From the UHGV virus genome UHGV-1520160: DNA of 39,030 nt; one strand, written 5' to 3'. The stretch comes from a virus. Below, piece by piece: positions 18,440-39,030 of this stretch. The notes under the pieces were generated by a model. That model was not told the origin of the DNA, made no database searches, and saw only the letters and a program-made list of their open reading frames with translations. The translations under genes were made by a program, and so were the position numbers. How positions within the stretch are numbered: the first letter of the stretch is position 1; every line of letters starts with the position of its first letter.

Positions 18440-18626
18440 GGGCGGCGTCCGCGCAGATTCTCGCTATTTATGAAAATTTTCTGGTTTATGCCATTTCCGT
18501 TCTTCTTCTTGTTTACTCATTGTTTTTGTTAAAAACGTCCTCTCTCCAGAAAGGAAATGCTGAGCAAGGAAAACGGAAGTTTACCGTTGATTGTTTCCTT
18601 TCTCTGTTTTTTGCCAGGAGTAAGCC
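18440..18626 (+). other. cos site: cosN cohesive-end sequence GGGCGGCGTCCG (18440..18451) and cosB-like region up to nu1
   Basis: Aligns by eye with recalled lambda cos (acg|GGGCGGCGACCT|cgcgggttttcgctatttatgaaaattttccggttta...); window has acg|GGGCGGCGTCCG|cgcagattctcgctatttatgaaaattttctggttta. Present as an uncut junction. Confidence 0.7.
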
Positions 18627-19172
18627 ATGGAGGTTAACAAAAAACGCTTATCCGAAATTTTCGGGGTAAGCGTCCGAACGATTCAGAACTGGCAGGAGCA
18701 AGGTATGCCGGTTGTCCGCGGTGGTGGCAAAGGTAATGAGGTTCTCTTTGAATCTGCTGCTGCAATCGAATGGTACAGTGCGCGCGATGCAGCTATAGAA
18801 AATGAAAAGTTGCGGAAGGAAGTTGAAGATCTCCGTATCGCTTCTGAGTCCGATCTTCAACCTGGCACGATTGAATATGAGCGACACCGACTTACGCGAG
18901 CTCAGGCTGACGCTCAGGAATTAAAAAATGCAAAAGAGTCCGCTGAAGTGGTGGAGACCGCATTCTGCACGTTCGTGCTGTCGCGGGTAGCCGGAGAAAT
19001 CGCCAGCATTCTCGATGGAATACCTCTGTCGGTTCAGCGGCGCTTCCCGGAGCTGGAGAACCGACATATTGATTTCCTCAAGAAGGACATCATTAAGGCC
19101 ATGAACAAGGCAGCTGCGCTGGATGAAATGATACCGGGGTTGCTGAGTGAATATATCGAACAGTCAGGTTAA
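18627..19172 (+). CDS. nu1: terminase small subunit (lambda Nu1-like)
   Basis: MEVNKKRLSEIFGVSVRTIQNWQEQGMPVVRGGGKGNEVLFESAAAIEWY...LSEYIEQSG is near-identical to recalled lambda Nu1. Confidence 0.95.
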   Translation: MEVNKKRLSEIFGVSVRTIQNWQEQGMPVVRGGGKGNEVLFESAAAIEWYSARDAAIENEKLRKEVEDLRIASESDLQPGTIEYERHRLTRAQADAQELKNAKESAEVVETAFCTFVLSRVAGEIASILDGIPLSVQRRFPELENRHIDFLKKDIIKAMNKAAALDEMIPGLLSEYIEQSG

Positions 19173-33902: not shown

Positions 33903-36900
33903 ATGGCTACTTCCACTCCGATTAGAGGCCGCAAGGGCGGCAGTTCCAGTTCCCGTACCCCTACAGAACAGCCAGACGATCTCCAGTCCGTAGCGAAGGC
34001 CAAGATTCTTGTTGCGCTGGGAGAAGGGGAATTTGCGGGGCAGTTAACGGCTAAAGATATCTATCTTGACGGCACGCCACTGGAGAATGCAGACGGATCG
34101 CAAAACTTCAGCGGCGTGGCATGGGAGTTCCGCCCGGGGACTCAGGCTCAAAAGTATATTCAGGGCATCCCCGGTACCGAGAATGAAATCAGCGTAGGTA
34201 CCGAAGTTTCAAGCGCTACGGCCTGGACGCATACCTTTACCAACACCCAGCTGTCAGCCATTCGTCTGCGCCTCAAATGGCCATCACTGTTTAAACAGGA
34301 GGACGACGGCGATCTGGTCGGCTATTCGATTAATTACGCTATCGATCTGCAGACAGATGGCGGTACCTGGCAGACCGTGCTTAATACCAGCGTCACCGGG
34401 AAAACCACGTCAGGCTACGAACGCAGCCACCGTATCGACTTACCGCAGGCGGGAAGCACCTGGACGGTACGTCTTCGTAAGCTCACCGCAGATGCGAACA
34501 GTGCGAAAATTGGCGACACGATGACGCTGCAGAGCTACACGGAGGTAATCGATGCCAAACTGCGCTATCCAAACACCGCGCTGCTGTACATTGAATTCGA
34601 TTCAAGCCAGTTTAACGGCTCCATCCCGCAAATTTCCTGTGAACCGCGCGGGCGCGTTATCCGCGTGCCGGATACTTACGATCCGGAAACCCGGACCTAT
34701 AGCGGTACCTGGACGGGGGCGTTTAAGTGGGCATGGACGGACAATCCGGCGTGGATTTTTTACGATCTGGTGGTGAGCGACCGTTTTGGACTTGGCGACC
34801 GCCTGACGGCGGCAAATATTGATAAATGGACGCTTTACCAGGTCGCACAATATTGCGATCAGCTGGTTCCTGATGGTAAAGGCGGTAGCGGCACCGAGCC
34901 TCGCTATACCTGTAACGTGTACGTGCAGGAGAGGAATGACGCCTATACCGTGTTACGTGATTTTGCGGCGATATTCCGTGGCATGACGTACTGGGGCGGC
35001 AATCAAATCGTTGCACTGGCAGATATGCCCCGCGATGTTGATTACAGCTACACCCGCGCTAACGTGGTTGACGGCCGCTTTACCTATTCTGGCAGCACCA
35101 CTAAAAACCGCTATACCACCGCGCTGGTTTCCTGGTCAGATCCGGGTAATGCCTACGCAGATGCGATGGAGCCGGTTTTTGAACAGGAGCTCGTCGCTCG
35201 CTTTGGCACAAACCAGCTCGAGATGACAGCCATTGGCTGTACCCGGCAGTCTGAGGCAAACCGTAAGGGGCGCTGGGGGATTCAGACCAATAACAAGGAT
35301 CGCATCGTATCGTTTGATGTTGGTCTGGACGGCAACATTCCACAGCCTGGTTATATTATCGCGGTTGCCGATGAGCTGTTATCCGGAAAGGTGATGGGAG
35401 GGCGTATCAGCGCGGTTAATGGTCGCGTTATCACGCTTGATCGTGATTCCGCTGCCGTTGCCGGAAGCCGTCTTATGGTTAACCTGCCGTCTGGCGCATC
35501 GCAGAGCAGGACGATTCAGAGCGTAAACGGCCGGGCTGTCACCGTGACCACGGCATACAGCGAAACACCGGCAGTCGAATCGGTATGGATTGTCGAATCC
35601 GACGAGCTTTATGCACAGCAATATCGTGTTATCAGCGTCTCTGATAATAACGACGGCACGTTTTCTATTACTGGTGCTTTTCACGATCCGGATAAGTATG
35701 CCCGTATCGATACCGGCGCCATCGTCGACCAGCGGCCAATAAGTGTAATTCCGCCCGGTAATCAGTCCCCGCCAGCTAATATCGCGATCAGTTCGTTTTC
35801 TGTCGTTCAGCAGAATATCAGCGTTGAGACCATGTGCGTCAGCTGGGACCAGGCGAAAAATGCTATCGCGTATGAGGCACAGTGGCGTCGCAATGACGGG
35901 AACTGGGTGAATGTGCCGCGCAGCTCCACCACGTCATTCGATGTTCCGGGGATTTATGCAGGACGCTACCTGGTTCGCGTGCGTGCCATCAATGCCGCCG
36001 AAATTTCATCTGGGTGGGGCTATTCAGAAGAGAAAACGTTGACGGGTAAAGTGGGAAACCCACCGAAGCCGGTTGGCTTCATCGCTTCTGAAAACGTGGT
36101 ATTCGGTATTGAGCTGAACTGGGGATTCCCGGCGAATACCGAAGACACGCTGAAGACGGAAATTCAGTACAGCCTGACCGGTACTGAAGACGATGCCATG
36201 CTGCTGGCCGATGTGCCTTACCCGCAGCGCAAATATCAGCAGATGGGCCTTAAGGCTGGGCAGATTTTCTGGTACCGCGCGCAGCTGGTGGACCGCAGCG
36301 GCAACGAATCAGGGTACACAGAATGGGTGCGAGGACAGGCCAGCATCGATGTTTCCGATATCACAGATGTGATTCTGGAGGAAATTAAAGACTCCGATAC
36401 GTTCAAAGACCTGATCGAGAACGCGGTGGACAGCAATGAAAAAATTGCTGGCATGGCTGACGACATCAAACAGGCCAACGATGAACTTGAGCTCCAGGCG
36501 CAGGAAATCGCAAAAAACGCGCAGGACATTGGGCAGGTTCAGACCAGTGTTAATGAGCTTTCGAGCACGGTCGGTGATGTATCTTCCTCTCTATCAGATC
36601 TTGAGCAGACCGTCGCAACGGCTGATACCGCGCTGGGCCAGCGAATCGACAGCATCAGCGTGTCTATGGACGGCATGACGGGCGGGGTTAAGAACTCAGC
36701 CATTGCCATTATCCAGAACGGGCTGGCGCAGGTGGCCACACGCAAAAGGCTTTCCGCGACGGTCGCCGGTAACAGTGCGCAGCTGGATCGTATTGATGAG
36801 GTAATCGTTAACGAGAAGGAGGCAACGGCGCGCTCTCTGCTGAGCCTGCAGACGGATGTCAACGGCAACAAGGCATCCATAAACAGCCTGAATCAGACGT

Positions 36901-37454
36901 TCTCCGACTATCAGCAGGCAACGGCCACGCAGATAAACGGCATTACGGCTACGGTGAACGGGCATACCTCAGCCATCACCACTAACGCTCAGGCTATAGC
37001 CAACGTTAATGGCGAACTCAGCGCGATGTACAACATCAAGGTTGGTGTCTCCAGCAACGGGCAGTATTACGCCGCGGGGATGGGTATCGGCGTGGAGAAT
37101 ACACCCTCCGGCATGCAGTCACAGGTAATCTTCCTGGCAGACCGTTTCGCCGTGACTACTATGGTCGGCGGGACTGTAACACTGCCGTTCGTTATCCAGA
37201 ATGGCCAGGCCATTATCAGGGATACAGTCATTGGCGACGGGACCATAAGCAATGCAAAAATTGGCAATTACATCCAGTCGAACAATTATGTTGCCGGCTC
37301 TGTTGGCTGGAAACTGGATAAGTCCGGGACGTTTGAGAACTACGGTTCGACAGCTGGGGAGGGAGCCATGAAGCAGACCAACCAGACAATCAGCGTCAAG
37401 GATGGCAACAACGTTCTGAGAGTGCAGGTTGGCCGATTAACGGGGGTGTTCTGA
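33903..37454 (+). CDS. J: tail tip / host specificity protein J; C-terminal region diverged from lambda
   Basis: 1183 aa; collinear with recalled lambda J over the N-terminal and central parts (DNPAWIFYDLVVSDRFGLG...QYCDQLVPDGKGG); distal part has an extended heptad-like region and lacks the recalled lambda C-terminal receptor-binding end. Confidence 0.9.
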   Translation: MATSTPIRGRKGGSSSSRTPTEQPDDLQSVAKAKILVALGEGEFAGQLTAKDIYLDGTPLENADGSQNFSGVAWEFRPGTQAQKYIQGIPGTENEISVGTEVSSATAWTHTFTNTQLSAIRLRLKWPSLFKQEDDGDLVGYSINYAIDLQTDGGTWQTVLNTSVTGKTTSGYERSHRIDLPQAGSTWTVRLRKLTADANSAKIGDTMTLQSYTEVIDAKLRYPNTALLYIEFDSSQFNGSIPQISCEPRGRVIRVPDTYDPETRTYSGTWTGAFKWAWTDNPAWIFYDLVVSDRFGLGDRLTAANIDKWTLYQVAQYCDQLVPDGKGGSGTEPRYTCNVYVQERNDAYTVLRDFAAIFRGMTYWGGNQIVALADMPRDVDYSYTRANVVDGRFTYSGSTTKNRYTTALVSWSDPGNAYADAMEPVFEQELVARFGTNQLEMTAIGCTRQSEANRKGRWGIQTNNKDRIVSFDVGLDGNIPQPGYIIAVADELLSGKVMGGRISAVNGRVITLDRDSAAVAGSRLMVNLPSGASQSRTIQSVNGRAVTVTTAYSETPAVESVWIVESDELYAQQYRVISVSDNNDGTFSITGAFHDPDKYARIDTGAIVDQRPISVIPPGNQSPPANIAISSFSVVQQNISVETMCVSWDQAKNAIAYEAQWRRNDGNWVNVPRSSTTSFDVPGIYAGRYLVRVRAINAAEISSGWGYSEEKTLTGKVGNPPKPVGFIASENVVFGIELNWGFPANTEDTLKTEIQYSLTGTEDDAMLLADVPYPQRKYQQMGLKAGQIFWYRAQLVDRSGNESGYTEWVRGQASIDVSDITDVILEEIKDSDTFKDLIENAVDSNEKIAGMADDIKQANDELELQAQEIAKNAQDIGQVQTSVNELSSTVGDVSSSLSDLEQTVATADTALGQRIDSISVSMDGMTGGVKNSAIAIIQNGLAQVATRKRLSATVAGNSAQLDRIDEVIVNEKEATARSLLSLQTDVNGNKASINSLNQTFSDYQQATATQINGITATVNGHTSAITTNAQAIANVNGELSAMYNIKVGVSSNGQYYAAGMGIGVENTPSGMQSQVIFLADRFAVTTMVGGTVTLPFVIQNGQAIIRDTVIGDGTISNAKIGNYIQSNNYVAGSVGWKLDKSGTFENYGSTAGEGAMKQTNQTISVKDGNNVLRVQVGRLTGVF

Positions 37455-37455
37455 T

Positions 37456-37758
37456 ATGGCTTATGGAATACAGACCTGGGATGCTTCGGGAAACCCCAAC
37501 AACTACGGAATCAAGCCCGTTTCCGTTGTTGGACGTATACAACTTGCCGCCGGACAAAACTCCGGCAGCTGGTCTTTCACTGTACCCTCAGGAATGAAGG
37601 TCGGTTTTGCGCTCTCACTTGATGAAGGAGGTAACAGCGTAGGGAGGAGCATTGTCGCGTCAGGGAACACAATAACCGTAACCGCAGCCTCTTCTGTGGG
37701 CCTGGGTAATTACCCGGCCTCTAAATGTGAGGTGGTCGTTTTCATGGAGAAAGCATAA
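37456..37758 (+). CDS. hypothetical protein (100 aa) sharing a domain with the next gene
   Basis: YGIQTWDASGNPNNYG motif recurs in 37758..38432 (GAMILMDNGNPF and WGLAIWDASGKLVL); tight coupling to the J stop. Confidence 0.45.
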   Translation: MAYGIQTWDASGNPNNYGIKPVSVVGRIQLAAGQNSGSWSFTVPSGMKVGFALSLDEGGNSVGRSIVASGNTITVTAASSVGLGNYPASKCEVVVFMEKA

Positions 37759-38432
37759 TGGCCGAATTTGGCGCGATGATATTAATGGATAACGGGAATC
37801 CCTTTGTAACGCCACAATCAACGCCTTTCTGTCTTTACGGGAAGTATACCTTCAATTCATCCGCGAATGGCAGTTCTCAGCAGGTTGCTCAAAATATCGC
37901 TTTAAACGCTGATTACCCAGTGATGGTTTTTATCAAAACCACCAATACAGCACAGCCCACTCCGGTTATGTCTTACAGGAACGGCGGTAATGTGTATGTT
38001 GCTGGTGTTAATCCCTACAACCAAAGTTTCACTTTAACGGCGTACGTTTTTGCCATATTCCCGCAGATATTACCGAAATGGGGTTTGGCAATATGGGATG
38101 CGAGCGGAAAGCTTGTGTTAACTAATGAGTCCCGTGTGCTATCAGACCTGCAGACGGTTGGCACGCCTGGTGCAAACGGCGGGATAAATATTGACCAGAC
38201 GCTGAGCGGGTCATGGGCCGTTGCACCTGCTCAGTTGGGTCAGACCATCATTGTGAATAATTCAACCCAGCCTCCGACTATCTACACGATAAATGCTTAT
38301 TCTTCATGCAGGTTTGACGGGGCCAATACGAGGATAAACGCAGGGGGGACCTCCACTGGGACAGGTTCACCTGTAGGGGGAACGAATACTGGCATTTCAT
38401 TAACCGCCATAAATACAGCGGCCTATGATTGA
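37758..38432 (+). CDS. hypothetical protein (224 aa) with two copies of the same domain plus Gly/Thr/Asn-rich C-terminus
   Basis: ORF track; internal repeat and paralogy with 37456..37758; C-terminus GGTSTGTGSPVGGTNTGISL. Confidence 0.45.
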   Translation: MAEFGAMILMDNGNPFVTPQSTPFCLYGKYTFNSSANGSSQQVAQNIALNADYPVMVFIKTTNTAQPTPVMSYRNGGNVYVAGVNPYNQSFTLTAYVFAIFPQILPKWGLAIWDASGKLVLTNESRVLSDLQTVGTPGANGGINIDQTLSGSWAVAPAQLGQTIIVNNSTQPPTIYTINAYSSCRFDGANTRINAGGTSTGTGSPVGGTNTGISLTAINTAAYD

Positions 38433-38543
38433 TTGATCGTTTTTAGCGATCAATAACATAATATTGATCTATCCAATCAATTATACCCACCAGAATTGTA
38501 TTGGTATCGTCTAAGATACTGAATTCCTCTGGATACTATCAAA

Positions 38544-38777
38544 ATGAGAAAACTGATTATCTGCATGGCAGGCGCTGTCATGCTTACAGGATGCGCTGGC
38601 GTAATTGAGAAACAGGAACCAGTTTGCAGCGGCACTGCAATCGTTGGCGGTCAGGAAACTACGGTTCAGATTTACGGTGTGCGTAAACAAAACAACCAGA
38701 CGCAGTACCGGGCTGGATATCCTTTCAGCTGGCGCTGGGTAAGTGCGAATACATTTACCGAAACAACCTGCAAATAA
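38544..38777 (+). CDS. small lipoprotein (77 aa); possibly Cor-like superinfection-exclusion protein
   Basis: Signal peptide with lipobox MRKLIICMAGAVMLTGC; AT-rich upstream spacer and terminator downstream; location after tail genes is where cor-type genes sit. Family call is tentative. Confidence 0.45.
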   Translation: MRKLIICMAGAVMLTGCAGVIEKQEPVCSGTAIVGGQETTVQIYGVRKQNNQTQYRAGYPFSWRWVSANTFTETTCK

Positions 38778-38797
38778 CCCACTACGCTTAAACATAA

Positions 38798-38822
38798 ACC
38801 TCGCTCCGGCGGGGTTTTTTTA
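38798..38822 (+). terminator. rho-independent terminator
   Basis: cctcgc-tccg-gcgggg hairpin (one mismatch) followed by ttttttt. Confidence 0.45.
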
Positions 38823-38837
38823 TTGCCTGGAGAAAAT

Positions 38838-39030
38838 ATGCTTTATAACACCGGCACCATCGCCATTAATGGAAATACCGCCACCGGGACGGGTACAAAC
38901 TGGACGGCACCGGCCAGCCAGGTCCGCGCTGGCCAGACGATTATCGTGATGTCTAACCCGGTGCAGCTGTTTCATATTTCATCCGTGAACAGCGCCACGT
39001 CAATGACGGTTACGCCTGCCGCTTCCCCGG
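38838..39030 (+). CDS. hypothetical protein, N-terminal fragment (possible tail fibre); runs off window end
   Basis: ATG at 38838 with GGAG RBS; open to the window end; MLYNTGTIAINGNTATGTGTNWTAPASQ... is Thr/Gly/Asn-rich like fibre N-termini. Confidence 0.3.
   Translation, partial: MLYNTGTIAINGNTATGTGTNWTAPASQVRAGQTIIVMSNPVQLFHISSVNSATSMTVTPAASP

Follow-up and report, generated by a model that had tools for sequence, protein, structure and literature searches.

The small lipoprotein gene at 38544..38777 of a 39,030-nucleotide stretch of viral DNA (UHGV virus genome UHGV-1520160; the whole stretch is referred to here as the window) is, with high probability, best explained as the cor moron of a phi80/mEp213-type lambdoid (pro)phage, preceded by repeats that are most likely an OxyR/Dam site. 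As judged by sequence comparison, the gene is cor, which is already known, and it is ordinary, with nothing new in itself. The added value lies in the regulatory block upstream of it, which is conserved, portable and a close match to proven OxyR/Dam switches.

Identity and genomic setting of the lipoprotein gene

The cor coding sequence (38544..38777, plus strand) comprises 77 codons plus stop. The encoded protein begins MRKLIICMAGAVMLTGC, and its complete 77-aa sequence is MRKLIICMAGAVMLTGCAGVIEKQEPVCSGTAIVGGQETTVQIYGVRKQNNQTQYRAGYPFSWRWVSANTFTETTCK. A first-pass annotation of this DNA had described a 77-aa lipoprotein with the lipobox LTGC, and the open reading frame confirmed this: L-T-G-C is found in MRKLIICMAGAVMLTG followed by the cysteine, and the lipidated residue is Cys17. 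In terms of coordinates, the signal peptide codons lie at 38544-38591 and the Cys17 codon at 38592-38594, both on the plus strand and both taken from the phi80 record, in which signal peptidase II processing is annotated for Cor. Mature Cor is a chain of 61 aa with Cys28 and Cys76 (Cys12 and Cys60 in mature numbering), and these two cysteines are found both in the window protein and in the Cor homologues compared.

The same annotation had likened the protein to Cor, and this assignment turned out to be correct. Cor of the window is 100% identical (77/77 residues) to phi80 Cor (CBH95076; GenBank FN582354, JX871397), mEp213 Cor and HK225 Cor, and the amino acid sequence is likewise identical in mEp043, HK140 and mEp237. 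The profile search against the Cor family that had been proposed as a check gave 140.9 bits, against a cutoff of 31, for NCBIfam NF047972 “lamb_exclu_cor” (“phage exclusion lipoprotein Cor”, an equivalog), with residues 1-76 aligned to profile positions 1-76 of 78. PHROG 1119, “Cor superinfection exclusion protein”, was also matched (E = 7.1e-37), and a Pfam search of Cor returned no family above threshold (best DUF4223, 14.8 bits versus a cutoff of 27). At the DNA level, positions 38300-39030 are 99% identical to mEp213, mEp043, HK140 and mEp237, in all of which Cor and its terminator are already annotated, and 95% identical to phi80, whose record FN582354 annotates a -35 element, an extended -10 element, a transcription start, the signal peptide, the lipidated Cys and a terminator. 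The locus was present in 76 of 5426 complete E. coli genomes.

The gene sits in a collinear arrangement of J (33903-37454), gp22-like, gp23-like, cor and stf, an order identical to that in phi80, HK022 and mEp213. Immediately upstream, the gp23-like gene (37758..38432, plus strand; annotated gp23 in phi80) encodes a 224-aa “membrane associated protein” (PHROG 425, E = 1.6e-80), and its stop codon, TGA at 38430-38432, adjoins the repeat block. Downstream, the 5' end of the side-tail-fibre gene (38838..39030, plus strand) matches PHROG 1591 “tail fiber protein” (E = 2.9e-31), is annotated stf in phi80 and runs off the window. The lipoprotein gene had been placed after the tail genes, which is wrong, as stf starts at 38838 and cor lies inside the tail module. 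Neither the tail-fibre gene 3' of cor nor the likeness of the repeats to known OxyR/Dam sites had been noticed at that first reading. The spacer between the gp23-like gene and cor (38433-38543) is 111 bp long and has a GC content of 30-35%, versus approximately 50% in the flanks, bearing out the AT-rich spacer of that length previously described.

Judged from its composition and its neighbours, cor is a classic moron, an AT-rich gene that carries a conserved promoter and a terminator of its own and whose position is variably occupied among collinear phages. “Moron” is also the name given to it in the phi80 and HK022 records. In phages LLS and Flotzy the position of cor is occupied by a different lipoprotein gene, and in ES18 cor is inverted and lacks the repeat block. 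The terminator, a repeat block with three GATC sites and the extended -10 element are all common to the window and the phi80/mEp213-type cor loci. The spacer is 100% identical to that of the mEp213 group and 82.6% identical to that of phi80, the DNA differences being only neutral. Viewed over its full length, the window is a lambdoid mosaic in which the early region is mEp237-like, the structural genes are phi80/HK225-like and a cos-type junction is placed near 18.44-18.63 kb; outside the cor locus, it is thus a different mosaic from the phi80/mEp213-type phages.

Cor and the exclusion of FhuA-dependent phages

The FhuA-exclusion function is established in the literature for the exact protein sequence found here. 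In PMC3594210, which cites Uc-Mass et al. 2004, the Cor proteins of HK022, N15 and phi80 are described as inactivating FhuA, reducing the uptake of ferrichrome and giving protection against colicin M, and T1 is blocked by phi80 cor (PMC2885432). Functional inactivation of FhuA has been described for Cor proteins including that of mEp167, by a molecular mechanism that was not elucidated (bioRxiv 10.64898/2026.03.26.714494). Cor is made as a 77-aa prolipoprotein and inactivates the TonB-dependent ferrichrome transporter FhuA; phages needing FhuA (T1, phi80, mEp167 and other lambdoids) and colicin M are kept out, and the price is ferrichrome uptake.

The closest point of reference for this activity is Llp of phage T5, which attaches to the FhuA plug on its periplasmic face and, through reverse allostery, makes extracellular loops 7 and 8 fold inwards, and the authors of that work propose that Cor probably acts likewise (bioRxiv 10.1101/2022.06.28.497910). 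Two structural papers consider Cor and Llp one family (bioRxiv 10.64898/2026.03.26.714494; 10.1101/2022.06.28.497910), and their predicted folds have already been compared in published work. Llp (FhuA-Llp crystal structure 8A60) is, like Cor, a small outer-membrane lipoprotein with a 61-aa mature chain. Its disulphide joins Cys11 and Cys58, and mature Cor has Cys12 and Cys60, placing a Cys pair near both chain ends in each protein. The two also share FhuA as a target, a gene position beside receptor-binding/tail genes, and the block of FhuA-dependent phages and ferrichrome transport. They differ in that Llp comes from a lytic phage and is expressed early, whereas Cor is the product of a prophage conversion gene with its own promoter. 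By analogy with Llp, Cor is likely to bind the periplasmic face or plug of FhuA and to lock it in a state to which phages cannot bind.

This analogy is only weakly backed by searches of PDB with the Cor sequence and with a predicted structure. A phmmer search of Cor against PDB sequences gave no match at E values up to 10, Llp included. A single-sequence AlphaFold2 model of Cor (pLDDT 72) has the form of a five-strand small barrel; in a Foldseek search of PDB with this model, only generic Tudor/chromo-like small barrels were returned (E > 0.05), and 8A60 was absent from the top 50. Against BFVD, the same single-sequence model (pLDDT 72) matched T1-type Cor (E = 6e-6) and lipoproteins of T5-like phages, namely, that of DT571/2 (1e-4) and the phiR2-01 “receptor-blocking protein” (5e-3). 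Cor might instead, unlike Llp, exclude phages indirectly, via other outer-membrane proteins or a disturbed assembly of FhuA, which we consider unlikely. Cor is said to need other outer-membrane proteins, a requirement attributed to Arguijo-Hernandez et al. in Arch Virol in 2018, and indirect action would accommodate this as well as the mechanism still not elucidated in the literature and the missing sequence match or significant PDB fold match to Llp. It is opposed by the size, lipoprotein nature, Cys pair, target and phenotype that Cor and Llp share, by the BFVD fold matches that tie the Cor model to T5-like phage lipoproteins, and by the single Cor/Llp family of the two structural papers.

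Promoter, ribosome-binding site and terminator

A candidate extended -10 promoter element, TGgTATCGT, is located at 38502..38510 on the plus strand and matches the -10 element and start annotated in phi80 FN582354. In an alignment of eight phages whose Cor proteins are 77-100% identical, T-G-n-T-A-T-n-n-T at 38502-38510 is invariant (T88, G89, T91, A92, T93 and T96), and the surrounding bases vary. TTGnTAnnGT shows no variation in a wider set of 19 distinct cor loci, which extends to Rahnella prophages with 61% protein identity. The transcription start is predicted near 38518 (a database prediction). A Shine-Dalgarno-like GGAT (38531..38534, plus strand) lies 9 nt 5' of the ATG, and its four bases (G117, G118, A119 and T120) are invariant in the eight-phage alignment.

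Two other candidate promoter elements were considered. A sigma-70 consensus scan picked out TTGATC-18-CATAAT at 38433-38462, which was rejected as the main promoter because its -10 part lies in the variable N8 spacer of the repeat block and is not conserved at that spacing in relatives. The mEp213 record annotates another -10 element, GATACT at 38532-38537, which is unlikely because it leaves no room for a leader and overlaps the invariant GGAT, better read as a Shine-Dalgarno sequence.

Downstream of the gene, folding, conservation and phage annotations all indicate an intrinsic terminator at 38796..38821 (plus strand), with the stem AAACCTCGC / GCGGGGTTT, the loop TCCG and seven T. The hairpin (38796-38817), with a stem of 9 bp, overlaps the seven T (38815-38821) and has an energy of -17 kcal/mol (z = -3.3 versus shuffles), and the stem is maintained in relatives through one-sided, G-U or compensating changes. 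The terminator is annotated in phi80, mEp213 and further phages. The first-pass annotation had credited the gene with its own promoter region and a terminator after the open reading frame; the promoter claim agrees with the FN582354 annotation and with the cross-phage conservation of the extended -10 element, and the terminator claim is borne out by the hairpin and seven T at 38796-38821. In a lysogen, cor would be transcribed from its own extended -10 promoter at 38502-38510 up to the hairpin at 38796-38821, both predicted and conserved.

A repeat block with three GATC sites upstream of cor

The 5' part of the spacer is occupied by a repeat block at 38432..38481 with the layout ATTGATCG-N7-CGATCAAT-N8-ATTGATCT-N6-ATCAAT, a candidate OxyR/Dam site on the grounds of its repeats, an OxyR scan, its layout and its conservation. 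Direct and inverted repeats of GATCAAT/ATTGATC-like sequence had been reported here previously, and they could be resolved into three copies of ATTGATC, at 38432 (plus strand), 38448 (minus strand) and 38463 (plus strand), and one ATCAAT at 38476. Over the whole window, ATTGATC occurs no more often than expected (6 copies versus 6.2); three of the six copies cluster within 38 bp at the cor spacer. The repeats include three GATC sites, at 38435-38438 (GATC-1), 38448-38451 (GATC-2) and 38466-38469 (GATC-3), separated by gaps of N9 and N14. Nowhere else in the 39 kb do three GATC fall inside a stretch of 35 bp, and 0.0025 GATC triads of N9/N14 spacing would be expected in the window. GATC-1 and GATC-3 are 31 bp apart, or approximately three helical turns.

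OxyR-like sequences were scored by counting matches to the Toledano half-site consensus, ATAGnTnnnAnCTAT, at 10 positions per half-site and at spacings of 22, 31 and 32 bp. Half-site A, ATCGtTtttAgCGAT (38436..38450), matches 8 of the 10 consensus positions and is overlapped by GATC-1 and GATC-2. Half-site B, ATCTaTccaAtCAAT (38467..38481), starts 31 bp after half-site A, matches 7 of 10 and is overlapped by GATC-3. The repeat block is the only site in the window that scores at least 15/20 against this consensus; when the window was mononucleotide-shuffled 100 times, 2 of the shuffled versions contained a score of at least 16/20. The block occupies approximately -86 to -37 relative to the predicted start of cor transcripts, and the right arm of half-site B reaches the -35 region. 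A different second half-site, ATAA-N7-CTAT at 22-bp spacing, gave 16/20 in the window and was rejected in favour of the 31-bp partner because it has its left arm within the variable N8, whereas the 31-bp partner has been kept both in cor loci and in unrelated families.

Scans of the spacer with the Fur, FNR, CRP, IHF, DnaA and LexA consensus sequences gave no outstanding match. These scans bear on the possibility, which we regard as unlikely, that the repeats bind another host factor that tunes cor, such as SeqA at hemimethylated GATC, H-NS on the AT-rich tract, Fur, or RNA polymerase through an UP-element-like contact. The tract is indeed AT-rich (30-35% GC), and GATC-1 and GATC-3, at their distance of 31 bp, would suit SeqA too. 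Fur control would be biologically sensible, since fhuA is Fur-regulated and such control would link cor to iron and FhuA levels. However, the top Fur-box match in the spacer reaches just 11/19 and is equalled at 238 other positions in the window, and the FNR, CRP, IHF, DnaA and LexA scans are unremarkable. AT-richness also leaves unexplained why invariant GATC and CAAT stand beside variable AT-rich spacers, and the arms of the block are identical to proven OxyR half-sites.

Conservation of the block across cor loci and other genes

In the eight-phage alignment the repeats are far more conserved than their surroundings. To cover loci chosen independently of the repeats, 12 cor loci were collected by protein similarity alone from species-representative genomes of Enterobacter, Pseudocitrobacter, Buttiauxella and Rahnella. 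GATC-N9-GATC-N14-GATC is kept in all 12 of these loci, even where protein identity is as low as 61%. Among 19 distinct cor loci, GATC-2 is present in all 19 and GATC-1 and GATC-3 in 18 each; all three sites together are present in 18, as far as Rahnella. Exceptions are the HK022/HK75 group, which has lost GATC-1 and GATC-3, and ES18, whose inverted cor has no block. The AAnCAATTAT core of half-site B is invariant in the 19 loci, and the N7 and N8 spacers vary freely among them.

The block is also found upstream of genes other than cor. In blastn searches, it precedes a 120-aa lipoprotein gene that occupies the genomic position of cor in LLS and Flotzy but has the opposite orientation, and it lies 5' of a 75-aa open reading frame in Yersinia myoviruses. 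When IMG/VR was scanned for the exact pattern, more than 120 instances of the block came up, mostly before cor. Among the remaining cargo in IMG/VR, a transmembrane peptide of 40-56 aa accounts for 13 distinct instances and a soluble protein of 47 aa for 9; a Ner-like repressor and several small membrane proteins also occur, and many of the non-cor blocks lie at the tail-fibre/tail-sheath gene junction of P2-like prophages. In these unrelated families the third ATTGATC is again followed by ATCn-nTnnnAn-CnAT, the equivalent of half-site B.

Such a distribution, with one block bordering different cargo genes in lambdoid and P2-like prophages, is what would be expected if the repeats were a conserved moron-boundary junction, a “linker” at which homologous recombination swaps accessory genes, and if cor were simply constitutive; the function of Cor in HK022, where the GATC sites are not intact, would fit this too. 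A linker would, however, be uniformly conserved. Here the GATC and half-site positions are invariant while N7 and N8 vary, and what is conserved falls on the positions of the OxyR consensus and on those that GATC occupies in three proven OxyR/Dam sites. We judge a recombination linker to be quite improbable.

A candidate OxyR/Dam control site

The ATTGATC/GATCAAT repeats would most likely bind an OxyR tetramer, and the three GATC within them would be Dam targets. As is the case at agn43, Mu mom and P22 gtr, OxyR binding would then preclude methylation and vice versa, and expression of cor would become Dam/OxyR-dependent and possibly heritably bistable. On balance, we lean slightly towards the view that the cor repeats are an OxyR/Dam control site. 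Because half-site B touches the -35 region, repression would be favoured, in the manner of agn43 and gtr OxyR(BC); sites from which OxyR activates are similarly placed. A broader reading, which we put forward more tentatively and rate a little short of even, is that a portable module of approximately 80 bp, consisting of a mom/agn43-type OxyR core and three Dam targets, drives cor and unrelated small accessory genes in lambdoid and P2-like prophages of Enterobacterales. If the module behaves as its relatives do, exclusion via FhuA would be under epigenetic switching, ON/OFF or governed by Dam and OxyR.

Several observations count against the OxyR/Dam reading. The half-site scores, 8/10 and 7/10, are moderate, and the half-site spacing is 31 bp, versus 32 bp in gtr and agn43. 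HK022 Cor is reported to be functional despite the loss of two GATC sites, so that a switch would be dispensable for the function of Cor, and the cor gene of ES18 has no block at all. Lysogens of phi80 are classically described as uniformly T1-resistant, which argues against a frequent OFF state. No link of cor to OxyR, Dam or phase variation was found in the literature searched, which is weak evidence of absence as most subscription journals fall outside it.

If the OxyR/Dam reading is true, lysogens could hedge between Cor ON, with phage and colicin resistance and FhuA dead, and Cor OFF, with iron uptake through ferrichrome. Phages of the HK022 type, with two of the three GATC sites gone, would represent naturally locked forms. 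What has been a textbook “lysogenic conversion” trait would become the fourth documented Dam/OxyR-controlled family, after agn43, Mu mom and gtr/opvAB, and the first Dam/OxyR locus that switches a receptor-blocking exclusion protein, linking phage defence, iron uptake and population heterogeneity. The module, when found before small membrane protein or lipoprotein genes near tail-fibre genes, would also serve as a signature for further phase-variable conversion genes.

Comparison with known OxyR/Dam sites

Half-site A has a counterpart in the gtr locus of P22. Half-sites A and C of P22 gtr read ATTGATCG-GTAACAA-CGATCAAT and ATTGATCG-CTTGTAT-CGATCAA, and OxyR binds them only when they are unmethylated (PMC2909390, Broadbent et al. 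2010). The half-site A region of cor, ATTGATCG-TTTTTAG-CGATCAAT, has the same 8-bp arms and the same spacer length as these two sites, ATTGATCG-N7-CGATCAA(T/A), and the form ATCG-N7-CGAT is common to cor half-site A, P22 gtr half-sites A and C and a half-site of agn43. The loci are also alike in setting, as P22 gtr, like cor, consists of prophage-borne, receptor-modifying conversion genes beside a tail/tailspike gene. They differ in complexity: P22 gtr has four GATC and three half-sites 32 bp apart, which give alternative activating and repressing OxyR positions, whereas cor has three GATC, two half-sites and a single candidate binding position.

For the mom and agn43 sites there is proof that OxyR binds, that binding is sensitive to methylation and that expression is phase-variable; in cor these properties would follow by analogy. 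The cor block is inverted relative to its gene, unlike those of Mu mom and agn43, and its placement differs, since it lies at approximately -86 to -37 from the predicted start, compared with -12 to +35 for the agn43 site and a position further upstream for the mom site. In all three loci, two GATC flank one half-site and the third lies in an arm of the other. By the consensus count used here, under which characterised OxyR sites score 7-10/10 per half-site and cor scores 8/10 and 7/10, agn43 (flu) has half-sites of 8/10 and 8/10, set 32 bp apart with GATC gaps of N15 and N9, and Mu mom has half-sites of 7/10 and 7/10, set 31 bp apart with GATC gaps of N14 and N9. Read on the reverse strand, the cor block has gaps of N14 and N9 and a half-site spacing of 31 bp, exactly as in Mu mom.

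Genome order and genes flanking cor

Across window positions 18440-18630, similarity to phage genomes flips from the ends of the phage records to their starts, with the mEp237 record end on one side of the switch and position 1 of phi80 and HK225 on the other. Judged from these alignments, the segment is the cos junction, which makes the window a lambdoid genome in prophage order or a circularly permuted one. The early region of the window resembles mEp237, and the structural region resembles phi80/HK225.

Between J and cor, the exclusion lipoprotein gene, lie two ORFs of 100 and 224 amino acids (window 37456-38432), which are kept wherever the same cor arrangement is found. The shorter belongs to PHROG 557 ("outer membrane protein") and the longer to PHROG 425 ("membrane associated protein"); Pfam and NCBIfam yielded no family for either. 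In the phi80 record (GenBank FN582354), the 5' end of stf, the side-tail-fibre gene, contains a further annotated moron, "gene 25"; it lies on the opposite strand, has its own promoter and shares the cor hairpin, which acts as a terminator in both directions. The matching segment here (window 38811-39030, minus strand) extends past the window end and shows just a 51-aa minus-strand ORF (38820-38975). As to cor itself, the identical gene is labelled simply "hypothetical protein" in some RefSeq E. coli genomes (H130-H134, strains CX04-CX21) and "phage exclusion lipoprotein Cor" in others.

Variation at the cor locus

The repeat block upstream of cor, which carries three GATC sites, has lost two of them in the HK022/HK75 group (comparison loci L148:400-450 for HK022 and L003:590-640 for HK75, in their own coordinates). 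GATC-1 reads GATTG and GATC-3 reads TTATC, leaving the middle GATC as the only one, while the promoter and the remainder of the block are intact. These loci could be naturally "locked" forms of the putative switch. In Salmonella phage ES18, a 60% identical cor (L005:560-950) lies between the same flanking genes but is inverted and is not accompanied by the block; because of this arrangement, cor appears to have been inserted more than once at the gp23-like/tail-fibre junction, or else to have been flipped.

The repeat block upstream of other genes

In phages LLS (block, L009:1500-1560; gene, L009:1606-1968) and Flotzy (L011), the same three-GATC block precedes a 120-aa lipoprotein gene (MKRLFAVALLLASGC..., PHROG 25729) different from Cor, which occupies the cor position in the gp23-like/tail-fibre interval in opposite orientation. 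Yersinia phage vB_YenM_29.18 and four relatives, all myoviruses, carry the block as ATTGATCGTTTTGAGCGATCAAT-N8-ATTGATC (L010:200-300) close to the genome end, 5' of a 75-aa non-lipoprotein ORF adjoining the tail-fibre genes. Unrelated small genes follow the block in IMG/VR prophage contigs, and none has a PHROG function. They encode a 40-56-aa transmembrane peptide (MTILLW...DYEECPYD; L017, L024, L025 and others), a 47-aa protein (MELNQEEAE...HRLAEKLGL; L021, L034, L039 and others) and a Ner-like repressor (L094), along with small membrane proteins; L016, L074 and L122 also carry the block. Several of these block-preceded genes reside in P2-like prophages between the tail-fibre-assembly and tail-sheath genes, the interval that in P2 holds the Z/fun conversion gene.
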